A stretch of DNA of 64,000 bases from an uncultured virus (IMG/VR IMGVR_UViG_3300044213_000175) (IMGVR_UViG_3300044213_000175); one strand, 5' to 3'. Shown: positions 12,409-62,528, counted from the first letter of the stretch. The notes: generated by a model from the sequence alone, not told the origin. Numbers and translations are program-made.

Positions 12409-12627
12409 ATGGCAAAGGAAGAAGCAATGAAAATGCACGGCAAAGTAGTCGAAGTGCTGGGCAATGCTATGTTTCGTGTTAAACTCGACGACAGTGATCA
12501 CTTAGTAGTTGCGTATATCGGTGGTAAAATGAAAAAATTCGATATCAAAATTATTCTTGGTGATAAAGTTACATTGGAAATGAGCCCTTACGACTTATCT
12601 AAAGGTCGTATAATGTTCCGTAACTAA
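12409..12627 (+). CDS. infA: translation initiation factor IF-1
   Basis: 72 aa; [39 protein letters not shown]. Confidence 0.93.
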
Positions 12628-12634
12628 ATACTGC

Positions 12635-29026: not shown

Positions 29027-29842
29027 ATGGCATCTCATTATGAAACTTTGGGCATCAGCAATGCTGCTGGGCCAGATGAAATAAAAAAAGCATATCGAAA
29101 ATTAGCAAGCCAGAATCATCCCGATAAAGGCGGTGATACAGCTAAATTTCAAGAAATTGAAGCTGCATATCGAGTGCTGAGTGATCCTATACAAAAACAG
29201 AAATACGATAATCCTGCCCGATCTAATTTTAATACTCAAGATTTTGATTTGAATGATATTTTTGCTCATTTCGGGTTCAATCGGACAGGTAACCCTGCTG
29301 AACATTTTTATCCCAGAAAAAATAAAGATATACGAGTAAACATACAAGTTCGTCTTAAAGATGTTTTGCAAGATAACAAACAAATATTAAATATCAAAAC
29401 CAGTAATAAGCAAGTCAATGTGGATATAGTTATCCCGGCCGGAATAACCAGCGGAACCACTATCAAATATCCAAATTTGGGCGATGATATGTTTCCCGTT
29501 TTGCCCAAAGGATCATTGCTGGTACAGGTCAATGTCATCAATGATACAGAATTCGAAGTTAACGGTTTGGATATTATAAAAACCTTGACAATAACTTGTT
29601 TTGAAGCTATACTAGGCAGTGAACAAACTGTTATAGGTTTAGACGGGAAACAATTTACCATTCAAACACCAGAAGGATGCCAACCGGACACCAAATTAAA
29701 AATATCCGGCGAGGGATTACCTGGATTCCAAAAAGATATAAAAGGAAACTTTTATATCAGAATAAAAATTACAATCCCTAAGAATTTATCAGCTGATCAA
29801 ATTGAACTGATTAATAAAATCAACACCCTAACCAACCAATAA
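29027..29842 (+). CDS. DnaJ-class chaperone without Zn finger
   Basis: J domain with HPD, plus DnaJ C-terminal domains. Confidence 0.9.
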   Translation: MASHYETLGISNAAGPDEIKKAYRKLASQNHPDKGGDTAKFQEIEAAYRVLSDPIQKQKYDNPARSNFNTQDFDLNDIFAHFGFNRTGNPAEHFYPRKNKDIRVNIQVRLKDVLQDNKQILNIKTSNKQVNVDIVIPAGITSGTTIKYPNLGDDMFPVLPKGSLLVQVNVINDTEFEVNGLDIIKTLTITCFEAILGSEQTVIGLDGKQFTIQTPEGCQPDTKLKISGEGLPGFQKDIKGNFYIRIKITIPKNLSADQIELINKINTLTNQ

Positions 29843-29849
29843 ATATTTT

Positions 29850-32147
29850 ATGTCACTAAACAGCCTTCCTGAAGTAGATAAAATCGTCGAACTAGCGACC
29901 CAACTAGCAACAGATAAAAATCACACATACTTAACATTAGAACATTTATCAGTGGTGATGATAAATTACAACACCCTGGGTAATCTTTGTCAGAGTTTCG
30001 GGGTCGATACTGAATCATTGACCAAAGAACTGTCTGACTATTTAGATAATCAATCAGGACTGGTTAGTAAAAATCATGATGTTGTGCCTAAAAAAACAAG
30101 GACGTTAGAGAGAGTTTTCAATCGCGCATTGACCCAAGTATTGTTCAGTGGACGACAACATTTACTTCCTATCGATTTGATGCTGAGTATTGTTGACGAA
30201 GATACTAGTTATGCTTCATATCTATTAAGAAAATATGGAATCGAGCGACACGCTCTTATTAATTTTTACAATAAAGAAAATAAACCCGCTAGCACAAAGA
30301 AAAAAGTACAAAATCAAGCAGACACAATTCTTAATAAGTATTGTGATAATCTGAATCTCAAAGCCGAGGAAGGGAAGATCGATCCTGTTATTGGCCGAGA
30401 TACAGAAATTACGGAAATAGTCGAAGTATTGGCTAAACGCAATAAATCAAATATTTTAATGGTTGGCGATCCGGGAGTTGGTAAAACGGCGATTGCAGAA
30501 GGACTGGCACTTAAAATCATTAATCAAGAAGTCCCCGAGTATCTACTAGATCACACTGTGTATAATTTAGATATTGGTAACTTGTTGGCTGGTAGCAAGT
30601 ATCGTGGTGAATTCGAAGAAAAGTTCCAAGACGTTATGGAAGCATTAGTCGAAAAAGGCAAATGCATTTTATTCATCGACGAAGCACATACTATGCGAGG
30701 TGCAGGTTCAGGTAGTAACAGCAGTCTCGATTTCAGCAATATGATTAAACCTGCATTGACTAAAGGCAACCTCAAAGTTCTTGCAAGTACTACTTGGGAA
30801 GAATATACACAATCATTTGAAAAAGATCGTGCATTGATGCGTAGATTTTATAGAATGACGGTTGAAGAACCTACTCCCGAAATTGCCAAAGAAATTTTGC
30901 GTGGTCTTAAAGAATATTTCGAAGAATTCCATGGCGGCAACATCAGTGATGAAGCTATCAACTCAGCCGTAGATCTTTCGGTCCGATATCAGACTGATAA
31001 ACGTCTACCAGACAAGGCCATCGATCTATTAGATGCTAGCATGGCCAAACTTAAATTAGCTGGCAATGATTTTGTGCTATTAAAAAGTCATATCATCGAT
31101 AGCCTAAGTAAGTTTACAAAAATTCCAGTGCATCAACTTGATAATGAAGTTACTAAGAGTTTAGAGACTTTAGAGCCCAATATTAAAGGTAAATTATACG
31201 GGCAAGACCAAGCAGTAGAACAAGTATTGGATAAAATCTACGTAAGTCGTGCAGGGTTAAAAGCATTGAATAAGCCAGTTGGTAGTTATCTATTCTTAGG
31301 CCCGACTGGCACAGGTAAAACTGAATTAGCCAAATTACTGGCAGAAAACCTGGGTATGAAATTATTGCGATATGACATGAGTGAATATCAAGAAAAACAT
31401 ACTGTTGCGAAATTGATTGGCGCTCCACCGGGATATGTTGGGTACGACGACGGGAATCTGGGTGGCGGTTTACTGATCAGCGAAGTGGAAAAGAATCCCA
31501 ACTGCATCATATTATTCGACGAAATTGAAAAAGCACATCCCGATGTAAGTAATTTGTTATTGAGTTTAATGGACGAAGGGGTGATCACTAGCAGTAATGG
31601 CAAGAAAGCGGACTGTAGAAATAGTATTGTTATCTTAACCAGCAACTTGGGTGCTGCGGATAACGATAAAAATTCTATTGGATTCGGAGGGTTTGAAAAA
31701 GAAGGAGAAGATGATCGTGCCGTTAAAGATTTCTTTAAACCAGAATTTCGCAATCGTTTAGACGGTATTGTCAAATTTAACAAATTACAAAAGCCTAGTA
31801 TTGTTAAAATTGTTGATAAATTCGTAGCAGAGATGAATGACTTACTCAGCGATAAACACATTTATATTCAATTAAAACCTACTGCCATTGATGAAATCAT
31901 TGAAAAAGGGTACGATGCTAAAATGGGTGCGAGACCGCTGGCACGTAAAATAAACGAGCTAATTAAAACCCCATTGGCTAAAAAAATCTTATTCGAAAAC
32001 TTGTCTAATTGTACAGTTAATGTAGAATGGGTCGACGGGTATTTCGAATTTGACATTAGGCAAGATGAACACGCACTATTTCCGGTCAAGAGTGCTGTAG
32101 ATGAGGATGGTTATGTTGTCGTGGACAAGTTTGAACCCAACGTGTAA
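29850..32147 (+). CDS. clpA: ClpA-like AAA+ unfoldase
   Basis: Clp N-domain, two Walker A motifs (GDPGVGKT, GPTGTGKT) and an IGF loop. Confidence 0.9.
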   Translation: MSLNSLPEVDKIVELATQLATDKNHTYLTLEHLSVVMINYNTLGNLCQSFGVDTESLTKELSDYLDNQSGLVSKNHDVVPKKTRTLERVFNRALTQVLFSGRQHLLPIDLMLSIVDEDTSYASYLLRKYGIERHALINFYNKENKPASTKKKVQNQADTILNKYCDNLNLKAEEGKIDPVIGRDTEITEIVEVLAKRNKSNILMVGDPGVGKTAIAEGLALKIINQEVPEYLLDHTVYNLDIGNLLAGSKYRGEFEEKFQDVMEALVEKGKCILFIDEAHTMRGAGSGSNSSLDFSNMIKPALTKGNLKVLASTTWEEYTQSFEKDRALMRRFYRMTVEEPTPEIAKEILRGLKEYFEEFHGGNISDEAINSAVDLSVRYQTDKRLPDKAIDLLDASMAKLKLAGNDFVLLKSHIIDSLSKFTKIPVHQLDNEVTKSLETLEPNIKGKLYGQDQAVEQVLDKIYVSRAGLKALNKPVGSYLFLGPTGTGKTELAKLLAENLGMKLLRYDMSEYQEKHTVAKLIGAPPGYVGYDDGNLGGGLLISEVEKNPNCIILFDEIEKAHPDVSNLLLSLMDEGVITSSNGKKADCRNSIVILTSNLGAADNDKNSIGFGGFEKEGEDDRAVKDFFKPEFRNRLDGIVKFNKLQKPSIVKIVDKFVAEMNDLLSDKHIYIQLKPTAIDEIIEKGYDAKMGARPLARKINELIKTPLAKKILFENLSNCTVNVEWVDGYFEFDIRQDEHALFPVKSAVDEDGYVVVDKFEPNV

Positions 32148-34399: not shown

Positions 34400-34418
34400 T
34401 AACTACATTATATAATTA

Positions 34419-34443
34419 GGGAGATTTGAAATCTCCCTTTTTT
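34419..34443 (+). terminator. intrinsic terminator
   Basis: GGAGATT / AATCTCC stem followed by a T run. Confidence 0.7.
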
Positions 34444-34463
34444 GTTTTGTGCTAAATACTTGT

Positions 34464-35708
34464 ATGTTTGCACACGAGCTTTTTGAACAAAATAAACCCC
34501 GAGTAATTGTAACTTATCCCGGAAGATTCCAGCCGTTTCATCAAGGGCATGCTGGTGTATTTGCACAGTTACAGAAAAAATTTGGCAGTGAAAATGTATA
34601 TGTTTTAACCAGTAATGATACTAGTTCAGAAAAAAGCCCGTTCAATTTTGCAGACAAATATCAATTAATAACTGCTGCTGGAATTCCAGGAAATCATATA
34701 GTAGAAACAAATAAGATGTATGTGTTGCCCGAAGAATTTGACCCTACGACAACTATTTTTATTACGGCTGTGGGTAGTCCAGATGCAAATCGTTTAAATC
34801 CTGATTCGGTCACCAAAAGGGATCAGAAAGATAAAGAGGGAAATGTTACAAAACCTGCAGGTAGTCCAGGATATTACAAAACCTGGAGCAAGGATCATAA
34901 CCCTGTTACCGCAGATCAACACGGATATGTTGTTGTTATTCCTGAAATTAAAAAATCAATCAAAATTAAAGGCAAAATGTATGATGTAAGTCATGGTACC
35001 GAGTGCCGTAATTTATGGAATCTTGTACGCAATGATACCAAGGCCAAATCAGAATTTTTAAGTCAAATGTATGCAAGACCCAGTCAAGAACTTGCAGCAA
35101 TATACGACAAAATCCCAGAATCGGTAGGCGAAGATATTGATCCTGTTACCTCAGACAGTACCAGCCCCATTCATGGCAAATTGGAAGAAACAGGAGGGGT
35201 CGGTGTTATTGCTAGCAAAAAACAAGCCAAAGATCCACGCTATTCAAATAGTTTAACAGTAGATGTTAAGCCAGGAGCTATACAAAAAAATCTACGTGCA
35301 TTCAGACTGGCCGAGAGTGACAGTGCTATTACGTATCCCGAGATGGCTGATTTGATTGCTAAGTTTTTACCGATAGCAGGTAAAGAATTAAAACTCACCA
35401 AGTTCCCGCATATCAAAATCGAAAAGAATTTAACACCACACGGCGGACAAGCAACCTTCGGCAGATTCGTTAATGAAGAAGTTAAAATTTACTTAGGTAT
35501 TGCAAACCGTCATCCTGTTGATATATTACGCACATTAGCACATGAACTAGTGCATTTTAAACAATTCTTAGATGGTGAAATGTACCCTGCAGCAGGGGAA
35601 ACAGGTAGCCCAATCGAAAATGAAGCCAATGCTGTTGCAGGGATCATTATGCGGCATTTTAACTTAAAATATCCTAATGCTATCGATTCTAAGCCATTGG
35701 AGTTATAA
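34464..35708 (+). CDS. HxGH nucleotidyltransferase domain fused to HExxH zincin-like domain
   Basis: PGRFQPFHQGH; RTLAHELVH...ENEAN; start placed at MFAHELFE after TAAATA. Confidence 0.8.
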   Translation: MFAHELFEQNKPRVIVTYPGRFQPFHQGHAGVFAQLQKKFGSENVYVLTSNDTSSEKSPFNFADKYQLITAAGIPGNHIVETNKMYVLPEEFDPTTTIFITAVGSPDANRLNPDSVTKRDQKDKEGNVTKPAGSPGYYKTWSKDHNPVTADQHGYVVVIPEIKKSIKIKGKMYDVSHGTECRNLWNLVRNDTKAKSEFLSQMYARPSQELAAIYDKIPESVGEDIDPVTSDSTSPIHGKLEETGGVGVIASKKQAKDPRYSNSLTVDVKPGAIQKNLRAFRLAESDSAITYPEMADLIAKFLPIAGKELKLTKFPHIKIEKNLTPHGGQATFGRFVNEEVKIYLGIANRHPVDILRTLAHELVHFKQFLDGEMYPAAGETGSPIENEANAVAGIIMRHFNLKYPNAIDSKPLEL

Positions 35709-35983
35709 TGGATTATACTAAAGTAGAGATAGATGTACTGTGTGACTGGGAATCTCCTGAGGTTTATCGTCTTTATTTAGACGGTGAATTAATGTCTGAA
35801 AGAACATATAATTGGCCAAATCCGCAAGAATGGTTGCGAGAAGAAATAACTGTTGCGATAGGTCCTGGGGAACATCTATTAGAAATAACGGCAGTAAATC
35901 CTAATTTTAATAATTTTAAACTTACTAATTTAACAGTTAATAAAAATCCCGTAGAATTCAAAAATAATAAGTTTACTATTTAA
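35708..35983 (+). CDS. hypothetical beta-rich protein
   Basis: ORF with GGAG upstream. Confidence 0.7.
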   Translation: MDYTKVEIDVLCDWESPEVYRLYLDGELMSERTYNWPNPQEWLREEITVAIGPGEHLLEITAVNPNFNNFKLTNLTVNKNPVEFKNNKFTI

Positions 35984-36014
35984 ACTAAATACACATTATA
36001 TCCGGAATATAATT

Positions 36015-36836
36015 ATGAAAAGTTCACAATTTTTAGGCGAAGGTTTCGTCGAAGACGCACACAGCGTTCACCAAGATCACGAAGTACAGATGGCTCGTGA
36101 GGAGTTATACCATTCTGCAGAATATGCACTACGTTTACATAAGCTATTAAGAAATGTAAGCGAAGAACAGGGTTTAGAAGGATGGGTCAGTGCTAAAATT
36201 ACGTTAGCAAATGATTACTTAAAAACAGTGTTAGATCACATTGAATATCAGCTGATGTCAGGTGCCACAGGTCCCGGCGACGCCAATTCCAGCGCAGAAG
36301 TTATGCCAATAGCCGAAGGTGCAGAATTTGGTGCTAATTATGCTGAGCAAGTAGCGCAACAGATTTTTAATAAACGTCAAGACATCAGTTCTGAAGCAGA
36401 AGTGTTAAATCAAGCCTATCACATTGTGGCCGATGAGCAAGGACAACGATCCTCTCGTTATATGTTTAACTATGATGCAGATTTCCCCAGTGATCTTGTA
36501 AGTGCTTATTTTTGGTTACAAAAATCTCAAGGTGTGGCGGAAGCAGGTATGCCATCAAGTGTTGTTAAGAGTAAACAACGTTACAGTCAAATGACTCCCG
36601 TTGAATTTGCCAAAGCACATGCTGACAAATCTGATGAACAATTAGTATCAATGGCCTGGCGACATGGGCACGGCAAAGGAAGCACTCATTATGTAGACAA
36701 ACGCAATAAAGGCAAGCAAGGCATGGCAGAAACATCTGCAGGTAATATTGCCGCAGTAGTAAATCCACCGGCAAAGAATAAAGCCAAAGTTGGTACACTA
36801 TTCGGCGGAACATATAAACAACCCAAGGCAAAATAA
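36015..36836 (+). CDS. putative internal head protein (modular)
   Basis: MKSSQFLGE leader; QGVAE and QGMAE motifs; TAAATA at 35986. Confidence 0.6.
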   Translation: MKSSQFLGEGFVEDAHSVHQDHEVQMAREELYHSAEYALRLHKLLRNVSEEQGLEGWVSAKITLANDYLKTVLDHIEYQLMSGATGPGDANSSAEVMPIAEGAEFGANYAEQVAQQIFNKRQDISSEAEVLNQAYHIVADEQGQRSSRYMFNYDADFPSDLVSAYFWLQKSQGVAEAGMPSSVVKSKQRYSQMTPVEFAKAHADKSDEQLVSMAWRHGHGKGSTHYVDKRNKGKQGMAETSAGNIAAVVNPPAKNKAKVGTLFGGTYKQPKAK

Positions 36837-39800
36837 TAATGGATATCAAAGCAATCTTAGAAAAAATGGATAGCATGCTATCTGCCGAAAAACATTCAAC
36901 TGGTCCTAAATTTCCAGGTTATTGGAAGGGTAAAGATCCTGCAAGTAAAGCCAAAAATAAAATGGTAGGCAGCGCAGAAGAAAGTGTTCTACCAGAATTA
37001 TCTAAAACTGCCGACGATACTGCAATTTTACGTAGATTAGAAGATGCATACGATAAATTTAAAAATGTACCCGAAGTTGACTATGATGATCCAACATGGA
37101 TCGCTAGCGTAGATAGATTAAAAAAAATGGCAAGTTCGGGCCCATTAAAAACTGTATGGGACCCCGAGAAGCGAGTTTACAGAAACGTACCAGTTAGTCA
37201 TGAAAAGAAAATAGAAGAATACGGTAACGCCACAGATCCATCTCAACAATCTACCAATGCCGATCAGCAAAATACTGCATCGATCGGTCAACCAACAAAT
37301 GTAATCGGTGCAAATACTGCGGTATCTAGTACACAAACAATTACAGATCCGGCTGCGCTAGCAAAACAGGATCAGCAATCCGCACAACAAACTGCACAGC
37401 AAGTTAAAAATGTATTAGGTACAGATGTACAACCGAATTTAATTGCTAGTGCAATGACCAAAAGCGAGCAAGGTCAACAATTAAATCCTCAAGAATTACA
37501 AACAATGGGCAAAGTCAATCGACTGATAGCACAAGCCGCAAAATCCGGATCATTGGAACCTGCATTACAACAAGCTGGAAAGGCATTGGGGAAATAAAAT
37601 GTTTATATCAGATATTTTTGAAAATGTAAGTCCTATTGATCTAGCAGAAATTTTATTCAATGCTATAGAAAAAAAGTATCCTGAATTGATTACTCGGTAT
37701 GGGCATGAAGTAGTCGGCGATGCGATAATGGATCGCGCCGAAGAAGAAACTAATGTTCATAGTATGGGAGAAGTTGCTATTATCGTTGATGAAATTGTAG
37801 AAGAATTAAAAAATCGTAATCAAGGACAAGATGATATCGATGTGGCGGAAGGCTCCACAGGTGTTAGCGTAAGAAAATGGGCTAATCAAGTTCGCAAAGA
37901 TCATGGCACAGATATCAAATTTGTAAATCGTAAAGAAGGCGGTGGAGCAGTTGATAGCGTGATTGCTAAAAATAGTCAAGGCGAAACTGTAGGAGTTTAT
38001 AATCGTAAAACAGGATATCCTACTGTATTCGAACCAAAGCAAGATGTGGCGGAAGGCGAAGTTGTTCCGTTTAAGCAAAAAAATCCACTAACTCCTAATC
38101 TTATCAAGCAACTCAAAGCACTAAGTCAACAAGCACTGGAATTGTTCTGGGAAGGCTCATACATGCCAACTGCCTTACAAGGTCAAGTAGCACAGTTGGG
38201 CAAGAATGAAGAACAGAGAATGTTCAAACAAAATGAGGCAGCTTTCAAAGCCCTGGGTTACGAATATTCAATAGTAGAAGATAGTCAGGATCTACTATAT
38301 CTACATTCTATTGCTAGAGAAGCATGGTATGATGCTGATAAACTAGCAAATCAATATCGTGGATTACCCGATTTACAATACAATGCGGAAACTAATACAT
38401 TGAGTTATTATGATTTGATAGGCGATGATGGTTATGAATATAACGACAACACTCAGTTTGAAGGTGTGGCGGAAGGCTTAAAGTTTCACGGTGGGTTCCC
38501 TGATGTAGATCATATGCCGGGCCCGGTGATACGCAATGCTGATATGACTACAGATAATGTAAAAACCAAAAATAAGAAAGACTGGGACCGTGCTGTTGAT
38601 AGCATTAACGCCCGAGTATTTGATGACATGGCAGAATTTAGAACTGACAGACACGGTGAGAGTGTTGTTGGTAACAGTGCTGTATGGGCCAAGTGGGACA
38701 ATGCTACACAGACTGGCTGGTTTAATGCTAAAGGTCGTCCATTAAAGCCCTGGCCAGTTAAAGAGCAAGGTGTGGCGGAAGACGGATTTAATAAACCTCT
38801 ATTTAAATCAAAAGAAGATGCTGTAGCGTATGCTAAGGAAAAAGTTAAAACGTTTAGAGATTCATTAGACGGTATTGAAATCTGGGCAATGCCAGATGGC
38901 AGTTTTGATACCGTTGCTACTATGAACTCTAATGGACGAAATCATTGTGTTGCTAATGGCGGGAAAAGACTAGGCGTAATTTATCGCAATCAGCAAGGGG
39001 TAGCGGAAGTCAGTGACAAAACTTTAACTAGTTATCTAACCAACGTAGATGCTGATAGTCGTAAACACAAGAGTGATCCCACAAAGCGTAGCCCAGAAAA
39101 GGCTAATCGCAGTGTTCAAGGATTCAGTCGTGCTTTCAATAAACTAGACGCTCGTAAAGCAACAGACCTTGTTAAAAGAGTTGGCGAAGCAGAAGGTGAT
39201 GAAGAAGGATTACCACACTTAACACCTAAACTAGCAAGTCATATTAGTCAACAAATTGACACTGAAGGTCCACACGCAGTTGATAAAAGCATTAACTGGG
39301 GTGATGGTGCTGCCGAAGAATTACTAGCAAAGATCAAAGAAATGTTAGATGACTATGCCGGAATAAAGACAGAAGCGGCAAAGATGTTTGAAGCATTTGA
39401 GGAATATGTAGAAGCTAACAATCTGAGTGAGAATGTATATGACACGTATTCCGACGAACAGATTATTACAGAAGTGGCGGCTTGGCAAAAGAAATCTGGT
39501 AAAAATAAAAATGGCGGATTAAATAAAAAGGGTGTAGCAAGTTATCGTAGAGAACATCCCGGTAGCAAACTACAAACTGCGGTAACAACAAAGCCAAGCA
39601 AACTTAAAAAAGGTTCGAAGGCAGCAAAGCGCCGTAAATCATTCTGTGCTAGAATGGGTGGTATGAAAGGCCCTATGAAGGACGAACACGGTAAACCGAC
39701 ACGCAAAGCATTAGCATTGCGTAAATGGCATTGTGAAAGCGTCGAGCAATTTGAGTCATTGATTCAACAAACTATTCTCGAAGCAGGAATTACAAAAAGT

Positions 39801-40260
39801 TTACATACACAAAATCCATGCTGGAAAGGTTATCATCCAGTAGGTACTAAGAAAAAAGGTGGACGTACTGTTCCTAACTGTGTGCCAACTAGCGAAGCTG
39901 CCAATCCAGCACAGCAGGCCGCTGTTGCTATTGCCAAAAAGAAAAAGCAAGGTGTGGCGGAAGGCAAAGATACTACCCCGCCAGGTTCGCCTGCTTGGAA
40001 AGATGGATATAGAGCAGGACTTAAAGATACTACCAACAAAAAGCCAGTGGGATCTTACGCATATTGTGATGGCTGGAAAGCAGCTAAGAAAAAACAAGGT
40101 GTGGCGGAAAACACAGGAGTCACCGATTACAATCCTAAAAGTCAAGGTGGCACACGCAAAGAGTTGTTGGCAAAATACCACAAGACCAAAAACCATAAAG
40201 ATGCTGAAGCTGCTAGAAAAGCAGGCGCCACACAAAAAGAGTTACAAGGTGTGGCGGAAG
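36528..40260 (+). repeat. dispersed in-frame repeat CAAGGTGTGGCGGAAG (QGVAE)
   Basis: Exact TGTGGCGGAA at 36533, 37841, 38045, 38465, 38771, 39953, 40100 and 40250; variants at 38994 and 36717. Confidence 0.92.
36839..37597 (+). CDS. putative internal head protein
   Basis: MDIKAILE leader; Gln-rich C-terminus. Confidence 0.55.
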   Translation: MDIKAILEKMDSMLSAEKHSTGPKFPGYWKGKDPASKAKNKMVGSAEESVLPELSKTADDTAILRRLEDAYDKFKNVPEVDYDDPTWIASVDRLKKMASSGPLKTVWDPEKRVYRNVPVSHEKKIEEYGNATDPSQQSTNADQQNTASIGQPTNVIGANTAVSSTQTITDPAALAKQDQQSAQQTAQQVKNVLGTDVQPNLIASAMTKSEQGQQLNPQELQTMGKVNRLIAQAAKSGSLEPALQQAGKALGK

Positions 40261-40904
40261 AACAACTCAATGAATTGGATCTGTTTGACAAACAAAAATC
40301 ATATTTTAAAATGGGGAATGGGCAATGGATAGTTGCCAACTATAGAAATGTCGGCTCGTTGAACGGCCCTGCATACGATCAAACATTTTTTAAATCGTTA
40401 CAATGGTTACCACAAAATGTTTCTCAGGCATTAGGTCTCGATTCAAAATTAGCAAATAAAGGTCCTTATGTGACCAACCTTTACGACTTTACTGACAAAA
40501 ATGCGTTAGATTATAGTAACGCAAATAAAGAGTTAATTGATGCTATAGAGAATTGGGTTGTTAAAAATCCTCCCGCTGCACCGTCTAAAGTTCAGCAAGG
40601 CGTAACAAAAGTGCAAGACCTTGCCGAAACTCGTTTGTACTACACAATTAAAGCAACATTAACCGAAAGTTTAATCAATGATTTTAATATGAAACAAGAC
40701 ACCGACGGTTGGTATTTGACTACAGAATCTGGCAGATATTCGATATTAGAAGCACATAGAGCATTCGGTGCGCCCAAAATTAAAGAAGTTAAGTTAAAAG
40801 AAGTTAACATAAATCTAGCAGACTTTACAGGTAGTGCAGCTACCGTTGGTTCACAAAATAATATAAGCCCAATTGGAAGTAAAAAAACAAATAAAGGTTT
40901 TTAA
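37599..40904 (+). CDS. large modular protein with QGVAE linkers (putative internal head polyprotein)
   Basis: 1101 aa; unrelated segments separated by 8 [GD]VAE linkers; includes basic modules. Confidence 0.8.
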   Translation: MFISDIFENVSPIDLAEILFNAIEKKYPELITRYGHEVVGDAIMDRAEEETNVHSMGEVAIIVDEIVEELKNRNQGQDDIDVAEGSTGVSVRKWANQVRKDHGTDIKFVNRKEGGGAVDSVIAKNSQGETVGVYNRKTGYPTVFEPKQDVAEGEVVPFKQKNPLTPNLIKQLKALSQQALELFWEGSYMPTALQGQVAQLGKNEEQRMFKQNEAAFKALGYEYSIVEDSQDLLYLHSIAREAWYDADKLANQYRGLPDLQYNAETNTLSYYDLIGDDGYEYNDNTQFEGVAEGLKFHGGFPDVDHMPGPVIRNADMTTDNVKTKNKKDWDRAVDSINARVFDDMAEFRTDRHGESVVGNSAVWAKWDNATQTGWFNAKGRPLKPWPVKEQGVAEDGFNKPLFKSKEDAVAYAKEKVKTFRDSLDGIEIWAMPDGSFDTVATMNSNGRNHCVANGGKRLGVIYRNQQGVAEVSDKTLTSYLTNVDADSRKHKSDPTKRSPEKANRSVQGFSRAFNKLDARKATDLVKRVGEAEGDEEGLPHLTPKLASHISQQIDTEGPHAVDKSINWGDGAAEELLAKIKEMLDDYAGIKTEAAKMFEAFEEYVEANNLSENVYDTYSDEQIITEVAAWQKKSGKNKNGGLNKKGVASYRREHPGSKLQTAVTTKPSKLKKGSKAAKRRKSFCARMGGMKGPMKDEHGKPTRKALALRKWHCESVEQFESLIQQTILEAGITKSLHTQNPCWKGYHPVGTKKKGGRTVPNCVPTSEAANPAQQAAVAIAKKKKQGVAEGKDTTPPGSPAWKDGYRAGLKDTTNKKPVGSYAYCDGWKAAKKKQGVAENTGVTDYNPKSQGGTRKELLAKYHKTKNHKDAEAARKAGATQKELQGVAEEQLNELDLFDKQKSYFKMGNGQWIVANYRNVGSLNGPAYDQTFFKSLQWLPQNVSQALGLDSKLANKGPYVTNLYDFTDKNALDYSNANKELIDAIENWVVKNPPAAPSKVQQGVTKVQDLAETRLYYTIKATLTESLINDFNMKQDTDGWYLTTESGRYSILEAHRAFGAPKIKEVKLKEVNINLADFTGSAATVGSQNNISPIGSKKTNKGF

Positions 40905-40912
40905 AACAAAAG

Positions 40913-41005
40913 AACACCCTTAGGACCGGTATTAAGTTACCGAAGTGTGCGCCGGCTGCTGGCGCGGGACGATTGAATTCGCTACTCATACTCCCGGAAG
41001 TGAGC
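40913..41005 (+). ncRNA. candidate structured RNA, unassigned
   Basis: GC-rich intergenic island with several complementary stems. Confidence 0.5.
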
Positions 41006-41024
41006 AAAATAACTCAAAAATATA

Positions 41025-41053
41025 TTGATCTCCATATAGAGTTAATATACAAT
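41025..41053 (+). promoter_or_regulatory. sigma70-type promoter
   Basis: TTGATC-N17-TACAAT. Confidence 0.55.
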
Positions 41054-41076
41054 ATACTTTTATTCAAGGAACTTTT

Positions 41077-41343
41077 ATGACTGATTACACACGTAGTTTC
41101 AACGGCGAAGCTAAAATCAAACTTACTCAACTTATTAATGAAGGCATGGCTGTTCTTCAAGAAGTAGAAGATTTGAACACCGGTCTCAATGAGACTATCA
41201 AAGCCATTGCAGAAGAATTGGAAATTAAACCAGCTACACTTAAAAAAGCAGTTAAAATTGCACACAAAGCCAAACTAGGCGAGACCAATCGAGATCATGA
41301 CGAATTGAATACTATTCTGGAAACCGTAGGTAAAACACTTTGA
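41077..41343 (+). CDS. T4 DsbA-like double-stranded DNA-binding protein
   Basis: 88 aa, helical; IKAIAEELEIKPATLKKAVKIAHK. Confidence 0.7.
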   Translation: MTDYTRSFNGEAKIKLTQLINEGMAVLQEVEDLNTGLNETIKAIAEELEIKPATLKKAVKIAHKAKLGETNRDHDELNTILETVGKTL

Positions 41344-41630
41344 AAGATATACTGTCAAATATTGTCGAGTGGATAAGAAATGATTGGAATAGTAACAAGT
41401 TTCGCTTTATTGTCGAGTTGCTTGCTTGGGCTATTAGTATTAGCTGTAGCATCACAATGGCCCTTACGGTCCCTAATCCACCTCTTATGGTCCTATATCC
41501 TATTTGGATTAGTGGTTGTGCTATGTACGCTTGGGCTGCTTACACTAGGAAGAGCTTTGGAATGCTCGCCAACTATCTACTACTTGTTTCAATCGACTCT
41601 GTCGGCTTGATTAGGATGTTAGCAAATTGA
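41340..41630 (+). CDS. small membrane protein
   Basis: Three hydrophobic segments. Confidence 0.7.
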   Translation: MKDILSNIVEWIRNDWNSNKFRFIVELLAWAISISCSITMALTVPNPPLMVLYPIWISGCAMYAWAAYTRKSFGMLANYLLLVSIDSVGLIRMLAN

Positions 41631-44287
41631 GCTTCGTTGATGCTTTATACGATAGACAAAGAGATAAAATTCACGTTGTAGAACGTGTAAATGGTGAACG
41701 GGTATATCAAGAATATCCCGCGAACTACATATTTTATTATGATGACCCAAAAGGTAAACACCATACAATTTATGGTACCTCGGTAACTAAATTCTCTACT
41801 CGCAATAGCAAAGAATTTCATAAAGAATTAAAAATTCAAAGCGGGAAAAGGATTTGGGAAAGCGATTTTAAACCGGTACTCAGATGCTTGGAGGATAATT
41901 ATCTCAATGCAGAACCGCCCAAATTACATACCGCATTTTTCGACATTGAAGTAGATTTTGATCCTGTACGTGGGTTTAGTCCGACGTCAGACCCATTTAA
42001 TAAAATTACTGCAATTTCTGTTTATTTGGATTGGTTAGATAAACTAGTGACAATGGTTATACCACCAAAAAGTATGTCTTGGGAGACTGCTGAAGAAATT
42101 TCAGCAAAATTTGACGATACATATATTTTCGAACGGGAAGAAGATCTATTAGATACCTTTTTAAATTTAATCGATGATGCAGATATTTTAAGTGGCTGGA
42201 ACAGCGAAGGGTATGATATTCCCTATACCATTGGTCGTATTACTCGAGTTTTAAGTAAGGATGATACCAGACGTTTATGTCTATGGGGGCAGTTTCCTAA
42301 ACAACGAGAATTTGAACGATTTGGCGCAACTAATATCACTTTCGATTTGATCGGTCGTGTGCATTTGGACTATATGCAACTATATCGTAAGTATACCTAT
42401 GAAGAACGACATAGTTATAGTTTGGATGCTATCGGCGAGTACGAACTTGAAGAAAGAAAGACAGCCTATGAAGGCACATTAGATCAACTTTATAATAAAG
42501 ACTTTGAAACATTTATTGCATATAACAGACAAGATACACGTCTGTTAGCAAAACTGGATAGAAAACTACGTTTTCTAGATTTGGCAAATACCATTGCTCA
42601 CGATAACACGGTGTTATTGCCGACAACAATGGGTGCCGTAGCAACTACAGAGCAGGCAATTATAAATGAAGCACATAGTCAAGGACTGGTCGTTCCTAAT
42701 CGAAAAGGCCGAGAAGAAGACGTCGACACCCAGGCAGCAGGTGCCTACGTTGCTTACCCAAAACGGGGTATGCACGAATGGATCGGCGCGATTGACATCA
42801 ACTCGCTCTATCCCTCGGCTATTCGAGCCCTTAACATGGGACCGGAAACTATCGTCGGACAACTCCGACAAACAATGACCGATAATTATATTAAAGATAA
42901 AATAAATTCAGGCGATAGCTTTGCGGCGGCATGGGAAGGATTGTTCGGCAGTTTAGAATACGATGCTGTAATGCGCGGAGATCCCGGAGTAGAAATTACT
43001 ATAGATTGGGAGGTCGGCGGCAGCGATATATTAAGCGCATCCAACGTATGGCGTTTAATCTTCGACAGTAACCGTCCTTGGACTTTAAGTGCAAATGGCA
43101 CCATATTCACCCACGAACGAAAAGGCATTATTCCAGGTTTGCTAGAACGGTGGTATGCAGAACGTAAACAAATGCAGGCTAAACTTAAAGAATCGACTAC
43201 TACAGAAGATCAAGAGTATTGGGACAAACGTCAGTTAGTTAAGAAGATTAACTTGAACAGTCTCTACGGTGCTATTCTTAATCCGGGCTGTAGATTTTTC
43301 GATCAGCGAATCGGTCAATCCACTACATTGACTGGCAGACTTATTGCCAAACATATGGATAGTTTCGTCAATGAAGCAATTACCGGACAGTATGATCACG
43401 TAGGCGATGCTGTAATTTATGGTGATACTGACTCTGTTTATTTCAGTGCGTGGCCTGCTATTAAAGCGGATGTCGAAGCCGGGCGAATGGAATGGAATAA
43501 AGATATCTGTATTCAAGTATATGACAACATAGCAGATCAAGTCAATGAATCATTCCCGGCATTTATGGAAAAGGCTTGTCATTGCCCGAGACAGAACGGC
43601 GCGATCATTAAAGGCGGTCGTGAAATTGTTGCATCAAAAGGCCTTTTTATTAAAAAGAAAAGATATGCTGTTCTTATCTATGATAAAGAAGGTAAACGAG
43701 TCGATGTAAAAAATTCTCCCGGCAAAGTAAAAGCCATGGGATTAGATTTAAAAAGGTCAGACACTCCCAAAATTGTACAAGACTTTTTAAGTGATATTCT
43801 ATTAGATGTATTGACCGGTGCACAAAAAGAAGAAATCATCGAAAAAGTAAAGGATTTTAAATATCAATTCCAAAAGAGACCTCCCTGGGAAAAGGGCACA
43901 CCCAAACGTGTAAACAACTTGACCAAGTACACCGCGGCAGAAGTTGCACAAGGCAAAGCAAATATGCCCGGCCACGTTCGTGCTGCAATGAATTGGAACA
44001 ATCTACGCAGAATGCACAGTGATAACTACTCAATGCAAATCGTAGATGGTATGAAAGTCATTGTATGCAAAGTTAAGGATAATCCATTGGGGTATACTAG
44101 TGTTGCGTACCCGACAGATGAGACACACATACCTGCATGGTTTAAAAACTTGCCGTTCGATGACAATAATATGGAAGATACTATTGTAGATCAAAAAGTA
44201 GAAAACTTGTTAGGTGTGCTCGAATGGAACTTATCCGAAGCCACTGACATTAGATCAACATTTACTACATTGTTTAGCTTTGAATGA
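41627..44287 (+). CDS. family B DNA polymerase
   Basis: Exo DIE, GWNSEGYD, DINSLYPS, KINLNSLYG, YGDTDS and KKRY. Confidence 0.97.
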   Translation: MSFVDALYDRQRDKIHVVERVNGERVYQEYPANYIFYYDDPKGKHHTIYGTSVTKFSTRNSKEFHKELKIQSGKRIWESDFKPVLRCLEDNYLNAEPPKLHTAFFDIEVDFDPVRGFSPTSDPFNKITAISVYLDWLDKLVTMVIPPKSMSWETAEEISAKFDDTYIFEREEDLLDTFLNLIDDADILSGWNSEGYDIPYTIGRITRVLSKDDTRRLCLWGQFPKQREFERFGATNITFDLIGRVHLDYMQLYRKYTYEERHSYSLDAIGEYELEERKTAYEGTLDQLYNKDFETFIAYNRQDTRLLAKLDRKLRFLDLANTIAHDNTVLLPTTMGAVATTEQAIINEAHSQGLVVPNRKGREEDVDTQAAGAYVAYPKRGMHEWIGAIDINSLYPSAIRALNMGPETIVGQLRQTMTDNYIKDKINSGDSFAAAWEGLFGSLEYDAVMRGDPGVEITIDWEVGGSDILSASNVWRLIFDSNRPWTLSANGTIFTHERKGIIPGLLERWYAERKQMQAKLKESTTTEDQEYWDKRQLVKKINLNSLYGAILNPGCRFFDQRIGQSTTLTGRLIAKHMDSFVNEAITGQYDHVGDAVIYGDTDSVYFSAWPAIKADVEAGRMEWNKDICIQVYDNIADQVNESFPAFMEKACHCPRQNGAIIKGGREIVASKGLFIKKKRYAVLIYDKEGKRVDVKNSPGKVKAMGLDLKRSDTPKIVQDFLSDILLDVLTGAQKEEIIEKVKDFKYQFQKRPPWEKGTPKRVNNLTKYTAAEVAQGKANMPGHVRAAMNWNNLRRMHSDNYSMQIVDGMKVIVCKVKDNPLGYTSVAYPTDETHIPAWFKNLPFDDNNMEDTIVDQKVENLLGVLEWNLSEATDIRSTFTTLFSFE

Positions 44288-54829: not shown

Positions 54830-55585
54830 ATGACTGAATCAAGAACATATAAAGAAACAGGGTTAGATGCTATGCACGGCAATGGCGGCTACGAAGAAGC
54901 GTACCTGGCCGATGTACTACGATTTAAAATGAAACGCGATAACAAACGTTTCTGGGCAGGAGATAACATCTCAGAGTACATCGACGAAGATGCAAAAGAA
55001 ATTCTAATTCGAGAAGCCACAGAAGCATTTGAAGTAGTATTAGATCGACTACTCATTGATCGTGAAACAGATCCAAATAGTAAGGGCACGGCCAAGAGAT
55101 TGGCCAAAATGTATTTTAACGAAGTAATGGCAGGTAGGTATGACCCAATCCCAGATGCAACGGCGTTTCCAAATGATTCGGAGGACCGTTATAAAGGCAT
55201 GCTCGTTGTTCGCAGTGAGCTTCGGAGTATGTGTAGCCATCATCACCAACCCGTTAACGGTGTTGCTTATATTGGTGTTTTGGCTGCTCACAAACTTATT
55301 GGCCTGTCAAAGTACACACGTATTGCACAGTGGTGTGCTCGAAGAGGTACTCTCCAGGAGGAACTTTGTAATGATATTGCTCGGGAAATACAAAAAGCCA
55401 CAGGAGCCGAAGACTTAGGTGTATATATACAAGCCACCCACGGATGCTGTGAGAACAGAGGGATTATGGCTCACAGTAGTCTGACTCAGACTACCGTACT
55501 CGCCGGTGCGTTTAAAGATGACGCAGGAACCAAAAAAGAATTCTTCGATAATATCAAAATGCAACAAGAGTTCGCTCCACGATAA
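54830..55585 (+). CDS. folE: GTP cyclohydrolase I
   Basis: SMCSHH, GLSK, LQE and HGCCENRG. Confidence 0.93.
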   Translation: MTESRTYKETGLDAMHGNGGYEEAYLADVLRFKMKRDNKRFWAGDNISEYIDEDAKEILIREATEAFEVVLDRLLIDRETDPNSKGTAKRLAKMYFNEVMAGRYDPIPDATAFPNDSEDRYKGMLVVRSELRSMCSHHHQPVNGVAYIGVLAAHKLIGLSKYTRIAQWCARRGTLQEELCNDIAREIQKATGAEDLGVYIQATHGCCENRGIMAHSSLTQTTVLAGAFKDDAGTKKEFFDNIKMQQEFAPR

Positions 55586-57688: not shown

Positions 57689-58153
57689 ATGTTGCTTAAA
57701 CTTTTAGAAAAATTAGATCGTAAACGTATTGTAATGGATCGAGTCAATGATGAACCTTATTTAGAACGCTATTACTTGTTTCTTAAAGACAGGAAAAAAT
57801 TTCCATTTAATATCTTTTTGCATAAATTTTTAAAATCAGATCCTGATGATCTTCATGATCATCCGTGGCCATATTTCACTGTTATTCTCAAAGGCGGTTA
57901 TTGGGAATGGGTTCCACAATTTAACAGTGAAGGCCAAACGACCGGTGAAATTGCCAAATGGCGGGCACCAGGACACTTCCGTTATTGTGCCGCTCATAAC
58001 TTTCATCGTATTGAACTTGACCCCGGTGTAGAATGTTGGACATTGTTTATGCCCGGGCCACAACAAAGGGAATGGGGTTTTGCAACTCGTCAAGGATGGG
58101 TGCAACACGAACAATATCTTAATAATCGTATGTTACTTAAAGGAACAAAATGA
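57689..58153 (+). CDS. cupin-like protein
   Basis: LHDHPW...GGYWE...FHRIEL. Confidence 0.7.
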
Positions 58154-58770
58154 GCTTAGTACCAATGGTGCTGGAACGAACCGGCAATAGTGAACGAGTA
58201 ATGGACTTGTATAGTCGATTGATGCGGGAACGTATTATTCTACTAGAAGGCGAAGTACATGATCAAATGGCCAATCTTATTGTAGGTCAACTATTGTATC
58301 TAGAATCAGAAAATCCGGACAAAGATATAACGATGTTTATCAATAGTCCGGGCGGATTAGTAACTGCTGGACTGGCAATCTATGATACTATGCAATTTAT
58401 CAAATGCGATGTTGCAACATATGTAATGGGTCAAGCGGCAAGTATGGGTTCTTTTTTGGCTCAAGCCGGTGCAAAAGGTAAAAGGTTTGTATTGCCGAAT
58501 AGTAGAACAATGATTCATCGTGTAAGCTCTGGCACTCCCAGTACTCGAGGCAGTGTTCACGTTCAAGAATTGCAGTTCGAAGATGCAAAACGATCTTTTG
58601 AAGAAAGCCAACGTTTGAATCAGCGACTTACTGAGCTGTATGTTAAACATAACTCTAAAGAAAAGACATATGAAGAATTGTTTGAAACTATGAAGTTTGA
58701 CACTTTCCTTTCAGCCGACGAAGCTGTGGCCTACGGCCTTGCTGACGAAATTATAGAAAGACGCAAATGA
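58150..58770 (+). CDS. clpP: ClpP protease
   Basis: INSPGG, AASMG and MIH. Confidence 0.93.
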
Positions 58771-59434: not shown

Positions 59435-59980
59435 ATGTCAGACGATTTTAACAGTATACAGAACGATTATAGACAATACATCCAACATCCAGTTCAATAC
59501 AAGTATACTTCAACAAAAGAATACCACGATGCATTTCCATGCGCTTATCGTCAATGGAGAGCAGACAGTCATTGTAATTTGATTCATGGTTATAGTTTCA
59601 GTATGAAGTTTTACTTTGGCACTGATGACCTTGATGTACGTAACTGGGCCGCAGACTATGGCGGACTTAAAGAACTTAAAAAGGTCTTGGAAGACCAATT
59701 CGATCATACCCTGATTGTAGCCGCCGATGACCCCGAGATGGAGACATTCAAACTGCTCGAAGCAAAGAAGATGGCCAAGATCGTCGTCCTACCTCGATTG
59801 GGGTGTGAGGGACTTAGCGATATGCTATACAAGTATGTAAATGGTGTTTATATTCCCGAGATGTGGGGGCCAAGCGAAGCGGCTCGTTTATGGTGCTATC
59901 GCGTAGAAGTACGCGAGACTCAAAGTAATATGGCATTTCGTGAGGGTCATAGATGTTGGGGAGAAGACCTTTTTGCGTGA
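59435..59980 (+). CDS. queD: 6-carboxytetrahydropterin synthase (QueD/PTPS family)
   Basis: CNLIHGY, DYGGLK, FDH, CE and VEVRET. Confidence 0.88.
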   Translation: MSDDFNSIQNDYRQYIQHPVQYKYTSTKEYHDAFPCAYRQWRADSHCNLIHGYSFSMKFYFGTDDLDVRNWAADYGGLKELKKVLEDQFDHTLIVAADDPEMETFKLLEAKKMAKIVVLPRLGCEGLSDMLYKYVNGVYIPEMWGPSEAARLWCYRVEVRETQSNMAFREGHRCWGEDLFA

Positions 59981-61643: not shown

Positions 61644-62528
61644 ATGTTCGGAACTAATACTATTATAGGAAAGCGTTTTTTCAAGGATGCCCCCGAGGAC
61701 AGCCTATTTGTAACCAGTATGTTTTTTACGCTACAAGGCGAAGGACCATATGCCGGTATGCCGGCACTATTCATCCGCTTGGCTAAGTGCAATTTAGATT
61801 GCAGTTTTTGTGACACATTTTTTGACGATGGCGATTGGATGACTTTCGATGAACTCGATTCAAAAATCGACGATACAATTGATTCTTTCTGGACTAGCAA
61901 GAGTAAAACGGTTCCGGGTTGGGCACGAACAACGAAACTAGCAGGCAAAAAATATCCGGGGGTTGTGTTAGTAATGACAGGCGGCGAGCCCTTGCTACAA
62001 GAAAACATCAGCGATTTCATGACATATCAGTTGAACAACTTCAAGGCTGTGCAAGTAGAAAGCAACGGTATCCCTGATACGATAGTTCCAGAAGGGGTTA
62101 CGTTAGTTTGTAGTCCAAAATGCATTGAAAAGGACGGTCGAGCTATTAAATATCTTGCACCTAGTAAAACAATTTTAGAACGTGCAGATTGCTTAAAATT
62201 CGTAATAACTGCTGATCCCACATCACCGTATAACACTATACCAGACTGGGCATTGGAATGGAAGCAGAATAACCCAGAAAAAGAAATCTATTGTAGTCCT
62301 ATGAATATATACAATAGCTTTCCGCAAAAGATTAAACTATTACGTGCAGAAAAAGGTCAAATTACAATGGCCGAACGTAGTACTGTAGATGAAGTTATTA
62401 GTTTTTGGGAGCCAGGCCTACTAAATTTAAAAGAAAATCAAGCCAATCACGAATATGTAGGAAGATACTGTATCGAAAACGGGTGTAAACTTAATTTGCA
62501 ACAACACCTATATGCAAGTTTAGCATAA
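61644..62528 (+). CDS. queE: 7-carboxy-7-deazaguanine synthase
   Basis: TLQGEG, FIRLAKCNLDCSFCDT, TGGEP, ESNG and CSPK. Confidence 0.9.
   Translation: MFGTNTIIGKRFFKDAPEDSLFVTSMFFTLQGEGPYAGMPALFIRLAKCNLDCSFCDTFFDDGDWMTFDELDSKIDDTIDSFWTSKSKTVPGWARTTKLAGKKYPGVVLVMTGGEPLLQENISDFMTYQLNNFKAVQVESNGIPDTIVPEGVTLVCSPKCIEKDGRAIKYLAPSKTILERADCLKFVITADPTSPYNTIPDWALEWKQNNPEKEIYCSPMNIYNSFPQKIKLLRAEKGQITMAERSTVDEVISFWEPGLLNLKENQANHEYVGRYCIENGCKLNLQQHLYASLA

Follow-up and report, generated by a model that had tools for sequence, protein, structure and literature searches.

How can a phage protein be built from unrelated segments that share one short joining peptide, and what keeps the DNA of that peptide constant even at silent positions? 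Both questions are raised by the gene at 37599..40904 (+ strand) of the uncultured virus IMGVR_UViG_3300044213_000175, of which a stretch of 64,000 nucleotides (nt) was analyzed (64 kb; hereafter, the window). The gene encodes a modular polyprotein of 1101 amino acids (aa), consisting of the leader MFISDIFE and nine linker-bounded segments (M1–M9), and the polyprotein is a real feature that does not reflect chance. It is well supported that its coding linker, whose silent sites are frozen in contigs of 31–49% guanine plus cytosine (GC), coincides with recombination breakpoints. The same linker may also be the site at which the chain is cut into its modules.

Eight linkers join nine unrelated segments

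A first-pass annotation of the window had described eight in-frame linkers in this open reading frame (ORF). All eight were found and read (G/D)VAE, seven of them being exact TGTGGCGGAA, and their spacings of 204, 420, 306, 228, 954, 147, and 150 bp were as given there. Exact TGTGGCGGAA occurs eight times in the 64 kb, always on the + strand (36533, 37841, 38045, 38465, 38771, 39953, 40100, and 40250), and every copy translates in frame to VAE. Allowing at most one mismatch raises the number to 10, whereas shuffled sequences gave 2.63 on average, and none of 100 shuffles reached 10. The repeat that had been reported at 36528 in another gene is indeed present, as a 15-mer inside the gene 36015..36836. 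The window or part of it was listed in 12 sequencing runs, all labelled freshwater metagenomes, four of which were compared in detail; some of their contigs, and the contig L001 from another metagenome, change context at the linkers.

37836..37850 (+), linker 1, IDVAE (...GATGTGGCGGAA)
38040..38054 (+), linker 2, QDVAE; contigs of run X6 change context
38460..38474 (+), linker 3, EGVAE; contigs of run X3 change context on both sides
38766..38780 (+), linker 4, QGVAE, exact 15-mer; contigs of run X3 change context
38994..39008 (+), linker 5, QGVAE encoded by CAAGGGGTAGCGGAA, the eighth, non-exact linker, with a core that reads GGGGTAGCGGAA; homology to L001 begins
39174..39188 (+), degenerate linker remnant KRVGE within M6
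39948..39962 (+), linker 6, QGVAE; left edge of the cassette replaced in L001
39963..40109 (+), cassette M7, 49 aa, carrying its own linker 7 (40095-40109)
40245..40259 (+), linker 8, QGVAE
40593..40628 (+), interrupted linker QQGV-TKVQD-LAE between M9a and M9b; QQGVAE or QQGMAE in relatives

The segments between the linkers had been called unrelated, some acidic and some basic, and this description stands. Their isoelectric points range from 4.1 to 9.6, and they share no similarity beyond linker residues (best E among the nine, 0.004).

The linker is fixed at the nucleotide level

The DNA of the linker is more uniform than its peptide would require, in agreement with the preference for GTG GCG at Val-Ala that had been noted earlier. 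Outside the gene block, GTG accounts for 15.4% of Val, GCG for 9.3% of Ala, and GAA for 82% of Glu codons; the expected share of GTGGCGGAA among sequences encoding VAE is 0.012, and it is used in 8 of 9 linkers (binomial probability 3e-15 if the linkers are independent). None of the five VAE tripeptides in other genes of the window is encoded by GTGGCGGAA.

Silent positions are not randomized beyond the window either. The exact 15-mer CAAGGTGTGGCGGAA was present in at least 133 stretches of a viral contig collection. Among the matches listed, it reads QGVAE in a frame open for at least 90 aa in 125 of 132 distinct frames, the open frames holding it are up to 1578 aa long, and the GC content of the loci is 31–49%. 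In xGVAE linkers whose first residue is not Gln, which were unselected by the search pattern, GGTGTGGCGGAA was used in 27 of 37 cases. A 9-mer-anchored alignment of 207 distinct contexts gave the core (a)aG CAA GGT GTG GCG GAA GGC, a linker of 18–20 nt that translates to (K/E)-Q-G-V-A-E-G. The Gly preceding Val is GGT in 192 of 193 cases, Gln is CAA in 162 of 163, and 100 of 126 Gly codons following Glu are GGC. In the flanks, by contrast, Gly is encoded by all four triplets (GGT 94, GGC 50, GGA 45, and GGG 14), and conservation decays to background a few bases outside the ~20-nt linker.

Codon bias cannot explain the linker, because its two Gly codons are fixed to different triplets. Nor does selection on the peptide alone freeze the DNA, as can be seen from the N-terminal leaders of neighboring genes, which are conserved as peptides and vary freely at silent DNA sites. 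One could instead suppose that the fixed nucleotides serve RNA or translation, as a rare-codon pause, a Shine-Dalgarno-like GGCGGAAGG, or an RNase site, and that the coincidence with breakpoints is a by-product. The genome seldom uses GTG and GCG, and the purine-rich GGAAGG at the end of the conserved core would likewise suit such a role. However, rare-codon pausing needs no GGT at one Gly and GGC at the other, inspection by eye found no self-complementarity in the 18-nt core, and breakpoints at linkers were directly observed in many independent contig pairs, so that we consider an RNA-level role very improbable. A Chi-like or homing-endonuclease cause was also considered; no supporting feature was found, and none was specifically tested. 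The simplest reading is that the linker stays identical as it would be both substrate and product of recombination.

Modules are exchanged at the linkers

L001 is 99.3–99.8% identical to the window over 7.8 kb, with interruptions. Compared base by base, the homology starts or stops at window positions 38992, 39965, and 40093, each within a linker, and unrelated modules lie beyond each of the three. To the left of linker 5, L001 carries other modules, including a GNAT fragment, and between linkers 6 and 7 it has a 145-aa module where the window has the 49-aa M7. Module changes bounded by the repeat, which the first-pass annotation had suggested looking for in homologs, are thus seen as exact swaps at three linkers. 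Homologs are not collinear and invariant; near-identical contigs differ by modules.

To see how far this pattern holds, internal breakpoints were collected from segments that are at least 93% identical between different contigs. Of 21 such breakpoints, 15 lie within 20 nt of a linker core (13 of 19 after removal of two rows that duplicate the L001 pair), compared with 3.3% of random positions. Contigs of four runs from four studies were also aligned to window 36000–41300. Among the 24 loose ends listed, 11 fall at the eight canonical linkers and one more at the degenerate linker (39186), where a contig of run X6 has canonical ...CAAGGTGTGGCG directly ahead of the window position at which the window itself reads KRVGE; 7 of the remaining 12 cluster around DUF6321, a domain of M6. 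One contig of run X3 spans exactly M3 (38041-38478, 14 differences), with unlike flanks on both sides, and run X2 has an L001-type module to the left of linker 5. Six listed joints begin and end at linkers, with short sides of 20–48 nt, about the length of a linker.

Every comparison sequence is a metagenome assembly, and the swaps might therefore be chimeric contigs misjoined at a short repeat. We find this hardly credible. The repeat spans 15–20 nt, which is shorter than the word sizes usual in assembly, the same junction types recur in contigs of different studies with all junctions in frame, and L001 and run X2 independently carry the same upstream variant. On these comparisons, the linker is very likely a DNA crossover point for module exchange.

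The modules occur independently of each other

M1–M5 mostly occur singly in otherwise different proteins, as expected for exchangeable units. A phmmer (HMMER) search of these five modules (470 aa) against 1.84 billion representatives retrieved 266 proteins at E ≤ 0.001. Among the best 150 of the 266, a single one of the five modules is matched in 146 and two are matched in four, the position of the module varies, and the proteins that contain it range from 65 to 1601 aa; at least one G[VMIL]AE is present in 102 and three or more in 48. Pfam gave no match above its curated cut-offs for M1–M5 and M7–M9, with spurious rows only for M3 and M4 (E 0.005–0.033). Three further parts of the chain are:

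39498..39728 (+), DUF6321 (PF19846), aa 634–710, part of M6; 74.4 bits against a cut-off of 28.5
39813-39884 (+), small Cys-containing CW-x-GY module
40260..40607 (+), M9a, a compact alpha/beta model with disordered ends

Only the DUF6321 and CW-x-GY parts of the polyprotein have relatives in cultured phages. M9a was detected in ten long proteins. Apart from the window's own protein and its counterpart in L001, these are eight proteins in which M9a lies close to the N-terminus, in the interior, or toward the end, with QGVAE, QGMAE, or QGVTE at its borders. No stand-alone form of M9 of 117–375 aa was found. The AlphaFold model of M9a has a predicted local distance difference test (pLDDT) score of 69.5 and a predicted template modelling score of 0.64, and its first eight and last eight residues, which adjoin the linkers, have pLDDT below 50. 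Ends modelled as flexible at the linkers would fit a cut site there. The model had no match in PDB at E ≤ 0.001, and its only viral match was one uncharacterized phage protein of 1434 aa. For M9a, the ESM Atlas yielded only sub-threshold look-alikes.

The linker as a candidate protease site

The starts of M1–M5 were projected onto their homologs, which yielded 88 distinct upstream boundaries. P1 is Glu in 67 of these (background 7.5%) and P3 is Val, Leu, Ile, or Met in 62 (background 18.5%); Gly occupies P4 in 43 and P1' in 54, and P2 is variable (Ala 42, Glu 14, Asp 9, Val 6, and Thr 6). Even among the 56 boundaries other than G[VMIL]AE, 35 retain Glu at P1. At random control positions, G[VMIL]AE accounted for 3% and other hydrophobic-x-E for 15%. 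The site motif of the T4 prohead protease is L/I-x-E, and the boundary pattern of strict Glu, hydrophobic P3, and free P2 appears to match sites of this type. Prohead proteases of giant phages are described as cutting C-terminal to Glu, with A-x-E in SPN3US (available text of PMC5694885 and PMC9026906).

A second line of evidence comes from modules that also exist alone. Modules that follow GVAE in polyproteins align N-proximally to stand-alone ORFs, in which they are preceded by a leader such as MRAQEFVTE, MKIREVINE, MRINELFE, or MNINDIITE. In 8 of 22 distinct ORFs the last Glu of the leader aligns exactly with the linker Glu, and in 15 of 22 the two lie no more than two residues apart (Glu background 10%). 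Such leaders look like the capsid targeting sequence of T4, MKTYQEFIAE, which the head protease removes in a single cut (available text of PMC8442874).

The module that L001 carries at linker 6 (L001:1378-1812) starts GSLEEIDRRGFLKGLGAAALAG, and residues 4–22 of its 145 aa match Pfam TAT_signal with 22.8 bits against a cut-off of 22.7. In the contig L077 a Tat signal likewise comes right after GVAE, and x-x-E sites of other kinds precede a further two Tat-like modules. A Tat signal is functional only at a free N-terminus, and its position behind a linker implies such an end. Tat-signal modules were observed inside the polyproteins of four contigs (L001, L077, L006, and L076), and that of L006 is followed by an A-x-A signal-peptidase-like site.

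A candidate enzyme is encoded in related contigs: Peptidase_S77 (PF03420) scores above its cut-off in four of five large linker-bearing contigs, and in the related contig L143 the protease is a 211-aa ORF. The related capsid proteins read NLLE/NATAG, HLAE/SATAG, YLKE/NASAG, and YLSE/SATAG, with the cut predicted after E. This L-x-E site followed by N/S-A presumably corresponds to the cut position of T4 gp23.

The chain might also remain whole, as a beads-on-a-string protein of the "polyvalent" type in which the linker is a flexible spacer and a recombination joint and the modules work without being released. Delivery in one piece is known for some large phage proteins with many domains, and the N4 virion RNA polymerase and TraC1 are discussed in this context (available text of PMC5512222), and GVAE is missing from the protease substrates in related head clusters. 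A mere spacer, however, would not retain the P1 Glu (67 of 88) and the hydrophobic P3 (62 of 88) with P2 left variable, and the post-linker Tat signal and the register with cleavable-looking leaders imply a free N-terminus. We regard an uncleaved chain as quite unlikely and cleavage after the linker Glu as probable; that the prohead protease makes this cut inside the capsid, with delivery of the products, is narrowly favored.

The polyprotein gene belongs to a block of leader-tagged genes

The polyprotein gene is the last of five genes (34464-40904) that follow a terminator-like hairpin. The features upstream of it are:

34418..34448 (+), terminator-like hairpin with a 10-bp perfect stem and then a T run, closing the upstream transcription unit (direct reading)
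34452..34459 (+), CTAAATAC, late-promoter-like, 4 nt ahead of the ATG at 34464
34464..35708 (+), two-domain protein with leader MFAHELFE, a cytidylyltransferase-like domain, and a C-terminal HExxH zincin-like domain
35708..35983 (+), small conserved gene of 91 aa without a leader; homologs of 90–114 aa lie beside linker genes in 8 loci
35985..35992 (+), second late-promoter-like CTAAATAC, 22 nt ahead of the ATG at 36015
36015..36836 (+), leader-tagged (MKSSQFLGE) modular protein with two linkers; its first module recurs in polyproteins of other loci
36528-36542 (+), QGVAE linker, exact 15-mer, in gene 36015..36836
36717-36731 (+), QGMAE linker (CAAGGCATGGCAGAA), in gene 36015..36836
36839..37597 (+), leader-tagged (MDIKAILE) protein of 252 aa

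Leaders of the form M-x3-4-[acidic or Q]-[F/I/L]-[F/L]-x0-1-E are present in four of the five genes, the 91-aa gene at 35708 being the exception. An N-terminal leader of about 10–20 residues that ends hydrophobic-x-Glu is a property of T4 internal proteins, and its presence here is a resemblance in pattern that does not imply homology. In the same loci the leader motif was found in 46% of linker ORFs and 26% of other ORFs (p = 0.004). Across loci L002-L082 we counted 85 distinct leader-bearing ORFs of the form M-[RK]-x-x-[E/D/Q]-[F/I/L]-x(1-3)-E, many of them MRAxEF(I/V)TE. Small proteins with such a leader thus form a very large family around the polyprotein genes.

Exact CTAAATAC was seen at four positions (12624, 25164, 34452, and 35985), located 4 to 30 nt upstream of the starts of + strand genes at 12635 (superoxide dismutase), 25202 (endolysin), 34464, and 36015. 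In related contigs, [ACT]TAAATA lies 4–5 nt ahead of a small head gene and 15 nt ahead of a portal-sized ORF. With only 4 nt between CTAAATAC and the ATG in two cases, the motif may be a late promoter whose mRNAs would be near-leaderless.

Two further observations concern such signals. The Fe/Mn superoxide dismutase at window 12623-13195 (Pfam Sod_Fe_N and Sod_Fe_C) has an N-terminal extension of ~16 residues like a capsid-targeting leader, and CTAAATAC stands 4 nt upstream of its ATG; this enzyme may be packaged in the capsid. Downstream of the polyprotein gene, a GC-rich inverted repeat without a T run, GCGCCGGC...GCTGGCGC, lies at window 40940-40975 in the 172-nt gap between the polyprotein stop and a DsbA-like gene, and it may be the terminator of the operon.

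The first gene of the block bears on how the polyprotein might be processed. Its CTP_transf_like domain was recognized by Pfam with E = 1.2e-7, while the HExxH domain (35337-35705) matched Tox-MPTase3 (E = 0.09) and SprT-like (E = 0.19) below cut-off, and a profile search against solved structures gave nothing below E = 0.09. The HExxH domain comprises ~110 aa, in which H, E, and H are invariant and an E/A motif follows downstream. In the window it is fused to a nucleotidyltransferase, whereas it forms a stand-alone leader-tagged protein in four contigs (L042, L030, L037, and L016) and the C-terminus of polyproteins in two (L004 and L066).

These contexts raise the alternative of a cytoplasmic polyprotein, cut after Glu by another protease (the HExxH domain, the phage ClpP at 58150-58770, or a host enzyme), whose modules are not packaged and act in the producing cell. 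The HExxH domain, encoded in the operon and recurring within polyproteins, could be the processing enzyme, and metallopeptidase domains have been proposed as processors of polyvalent proteins by Iyer et al. 2017 (available text of PMC5512222). ClpP, a ClpA/B-like ATPase, and DnaJ are all encoded in the window, and the GNAT, deaminase-like, nucleotidyltransferase, and Tat-signal modules could work equally well in the producing cell. Yet the HExxH domain, whose Pfam and PDB matches are sub-threshold, behaves like a cargo module itself, being shuffled and carrying a leader. A Glu at P1 with a hydrophobic P3 is typical of T4-type prohead proteases, and cleavage C-terminal to Glu is documented for those of giant phages (available text of PMC5694885 and PMC9026906). 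The leaders, which are like capsid targeting sequences, together with the late-promoter-like motifs, point to the head. Processing and action in the cytoplasm are in our view improbable.

The source phage and its relatives

The window appears to derive from an uncultured freshwater giant myovirus, which its DNA polymerase places distantly near T4. It has a GC content of 38.4%, and its genes include those for a clamp loader, a DsbA-like protein, PhoH, an endolysin, tail-fibre-like proteins, and the 7-deazaguanine pathway; no head genes, and no prohead protease of the phage itself, were found in the 64 kb. Two genes are used as landmarks:

41627-44287, gp43-type DNA polymerase
58150-58770, ClpP protease

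By polymerase, the nearest cultured phages are Sinorhizobium phage Phosso (51.7%) and Agrobacterium phage Atu_ph07 (47.4%), and the Rak2-like phages (~350 kb) are at ~42%. The linker carriers are taken to be giant phages because of the completeness estimates of the large linker-bearing contigs, which are 25–36% at 91–125 kb and 99% at 343 kb.

The window also encodes DnaJ (J domain and C-terminal domain), a 765-aa double-AAA+ ClpA/ClpB-like ATPase, and ClpP (29027-32147 and 58150-58770), a phage-encoded chaperone and protease set that is unrelated to the T4-type head protease. Genes for GTP cyclohydrolase I-like, QueD-like, and QueE-like proteins (54830-55585, 59435-59980, and 61644-62528) suggest 7-deazaguanine modification of the phage DNA; Phosso likewise has genes of these three types near its polymerase.

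No full-length relative of the polyprotein was detected in cultured phages when the polyproteins of the window and of contig L038 were searched with tblastn against 50,697 phage records. All matches were to the small DUF6321 and Cys-motif modules, mostly in cyanophages, and Phosso has no linker 12-mer even with one mismatch allowed. In Synechococcus phage ACG-2014f (L138, KJ019106.1 88006-90648), an 881-aa hypothetical protein near the terminase gene chains the Cys-containing modules CW-x-GY and WPSAYASG with DUF6321. It contains a single G-V-A-E, the non-canonical EGVAE, and no regular linkers. This protein may be an analogue of the cargo polyprotein in a cultured phage.

A proposed mechanism and its significance

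The best-supported mechanism, as judged from sequence, is that the polyprotein combines T4-type capsid-targeted internal proteins with motif-mediated modular shuffling. The genes at 34464-40904 would form a late operon encoding capsid-targeted cargo proteins. Recombination between co-infecting relatives would swap cassettes of a module plus its linker, in frame, at the identity shared by linkers, and a cassette acquired this way would not need a promoter, ribosome site, or targeting leader of its own. Recurrent exchange and conversion would hold the silent linker positions fixed across hundreds of contigs. At the protein level, V-A-E would be a hydrophobic-x-Glu site for a T4-type (Peptidase_S77) prohead protease. 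The single N-terminal leader would bring the entire chain into the prohead, where the protease would cut after each Glu, and the freed modules, equimolar and mostly small basic or acidic proteins, would remain with the DNA and enter the next host. We think it moderately likely that the block is a late operon of capsid-targeted cargo in which the linker is both a crossover site and a head-protease site. This dual role had been proposed in the first-pass annotation. Its crossover half is upheld by the breaks in homology at the linkers, and its protease half agrees with sequence signatures only.

Several observations weigh against this reading, in addition to the HExxH domain as another candidate processing enzyme. 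On the DNA side, the short-sided joints appear to be mostly contigs that leave the window at a linker and not proven deletions. The ends of high-scoring segment pairs between polyproteins lie within 6 aa of G[VMIL]AE in only 17–18% of cases, against 6% at random (~3-fold), and many protein-level boundaries must therefore use other junctions. For efficient homologous recombination, 15–20 nt of identity is little, and the analysis identified no enzyme that acts at the linker. On the protein side, where all steps are inferred, many modules border on something other than a canonical linker, none of the 80 ORFs in the head-gene regions of four related contigs contains G[VMIL]AE, and the predicted site in the capsid proteins has Leu and not Val at P3. 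The linker 12-mer occurs in one to six copies in five large contigs, away from the head clusters that were located in four of them. The enrichment of leaders among linker ORFs is moderate, and the operon adjoins replication genes (DsbA-like and DNA polymerase), outside the head cluster.

A more far-reaching idea is that a large pool of aquatic giant T4-related phages shares an integron-like system of in-frame cassettes, for which the linker would serve as recombination site. A dedicated enzyme, or phage recombination machinery tuned to this word, would insert, delete, and reorder cassettes within capsid-cargo genes, and since the word also encodes the proposed head-protease site, a cassette captured at any place in the array would be expressed, packaged by means of the one N-terminal leader, released, and delivered. 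We hold this to be unlikely; if it were true, these phages would have a programmable, fast-evolving anti-host payload, part of which is sent to the host periplasm via Tat.

If the dual role of the linker is correct, one 18-nt word handles the expression, the capsid targeting and release, and the in-frame exchange of many small cargo proteins. This would extend the T4 internal-protein paradigm to a cassette array and would explain in concrete terms how T4-type phages could shuffle their palette of internal proteins, as has long been suspected. The linker flags hundreds of uncharacterized modules as candidate injected effectors (for anti-defence, host takeover, or periplasm-directed functions), and the 15-mer is a simple handle for mining them. 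It also suggests an engineering route by which several proteins could be loaded into phage capsids from one gene.

Comparison with known systems

The closest parallel is with the internal proteins (IPs) of T4, i.e., IPI, IPII, IPIII, and Alt. They too carry a short N-terminal leader that ends hydrophobic-x-Glu (MKTYQEFIAE in T4), they are processed by a T4-type Peptidase_S77 protease, which was found here in related contigs, and they are small basic or acidic, non-essential-looking proteins whose repertoire is highly variable between close relatives. This likeness rests on the motif; sequence similarity beyond it was neither found nor sought. The T4 IPs are encoded one by one, each gene having a promoter and a leader of its own and each product being cut a single time, whereas up to nine or more modules are fused in one frame here. 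The IP loci of T-even phages hold more than 30 variants between conserved flanking motifs, and shuffling of the IP palette has been proposed (Repoila 1994, as cited in the available text of PMC2839356 and PMC4122927). The T-even recombination motif is an intergenic promoter/terminator element, in contrast to the motif described here, which is itself coding and a putative cut site.

Polyvalent proteins (Iyer, Burroughs, Anand, de Souza, Aravind 2017, PMC5512222) are similar in that many unrelated domains occur in one phage polypeptide with extensive shuffling, and, in the available text, co-delivery with DNA and processing into units are proposed for them, as in our reading. With nine segments, the polyprotein falls within their range of two to 15 unrelated domains per phage polypeptide. 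They differ in that autoprocessing by a metallopeptidase (MPTase) is proposed, and the available text of PMC5512222 describes no nucleotide-conserved junction and does not contain the word "linker". Pfam found only DUF6321 in the polyprotein and none of the polyvalent signature domains, including the zincin-like MPTase.

PeSL (promoter and stem-loop) cassettes (Arbiol 2010, PMC2839356; Comeau 2014, PMC4122927) resemble the linkers in that, according to the available text, short repeated DNA motifs in hyperplastic regions bound indels and replacements between close relatives. PeSLs are intergenic, consist of an early promoter plus a stem-loop, and move whole genes, whereas the 18–20 nt linker is coding, in frame, and moves protein modules. 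Inspection by eye revealed no PeSL-type hairpin or inverted repeat in the linker core, and the repeat lies in frame inside ORFs.

In phiKZ, 201phi2-1, and SPN3US, a protease related to gp21 makes several cuts in head proteins, at x-x-Glu sites like those proposed here, and giant phages pack large amounts of ejection proteins with their DNA (available text of PMC5694885 and PMC9026906). The cuts in these phages remove propeptides of dedicated structural or ejection proteins, and the available text of the two papers describes no DNA-fixed linker chain of exchangeable modules. Full-text searches, which exclude supplements, found no description of a phage polyprotein joined by such linkers. The processing of internal proteins and motif-mediated shuffling are thus known from other phages, and what would be new is that putative T4-like cargo modules are chained in one gene by a DNA-fixed coding linker.

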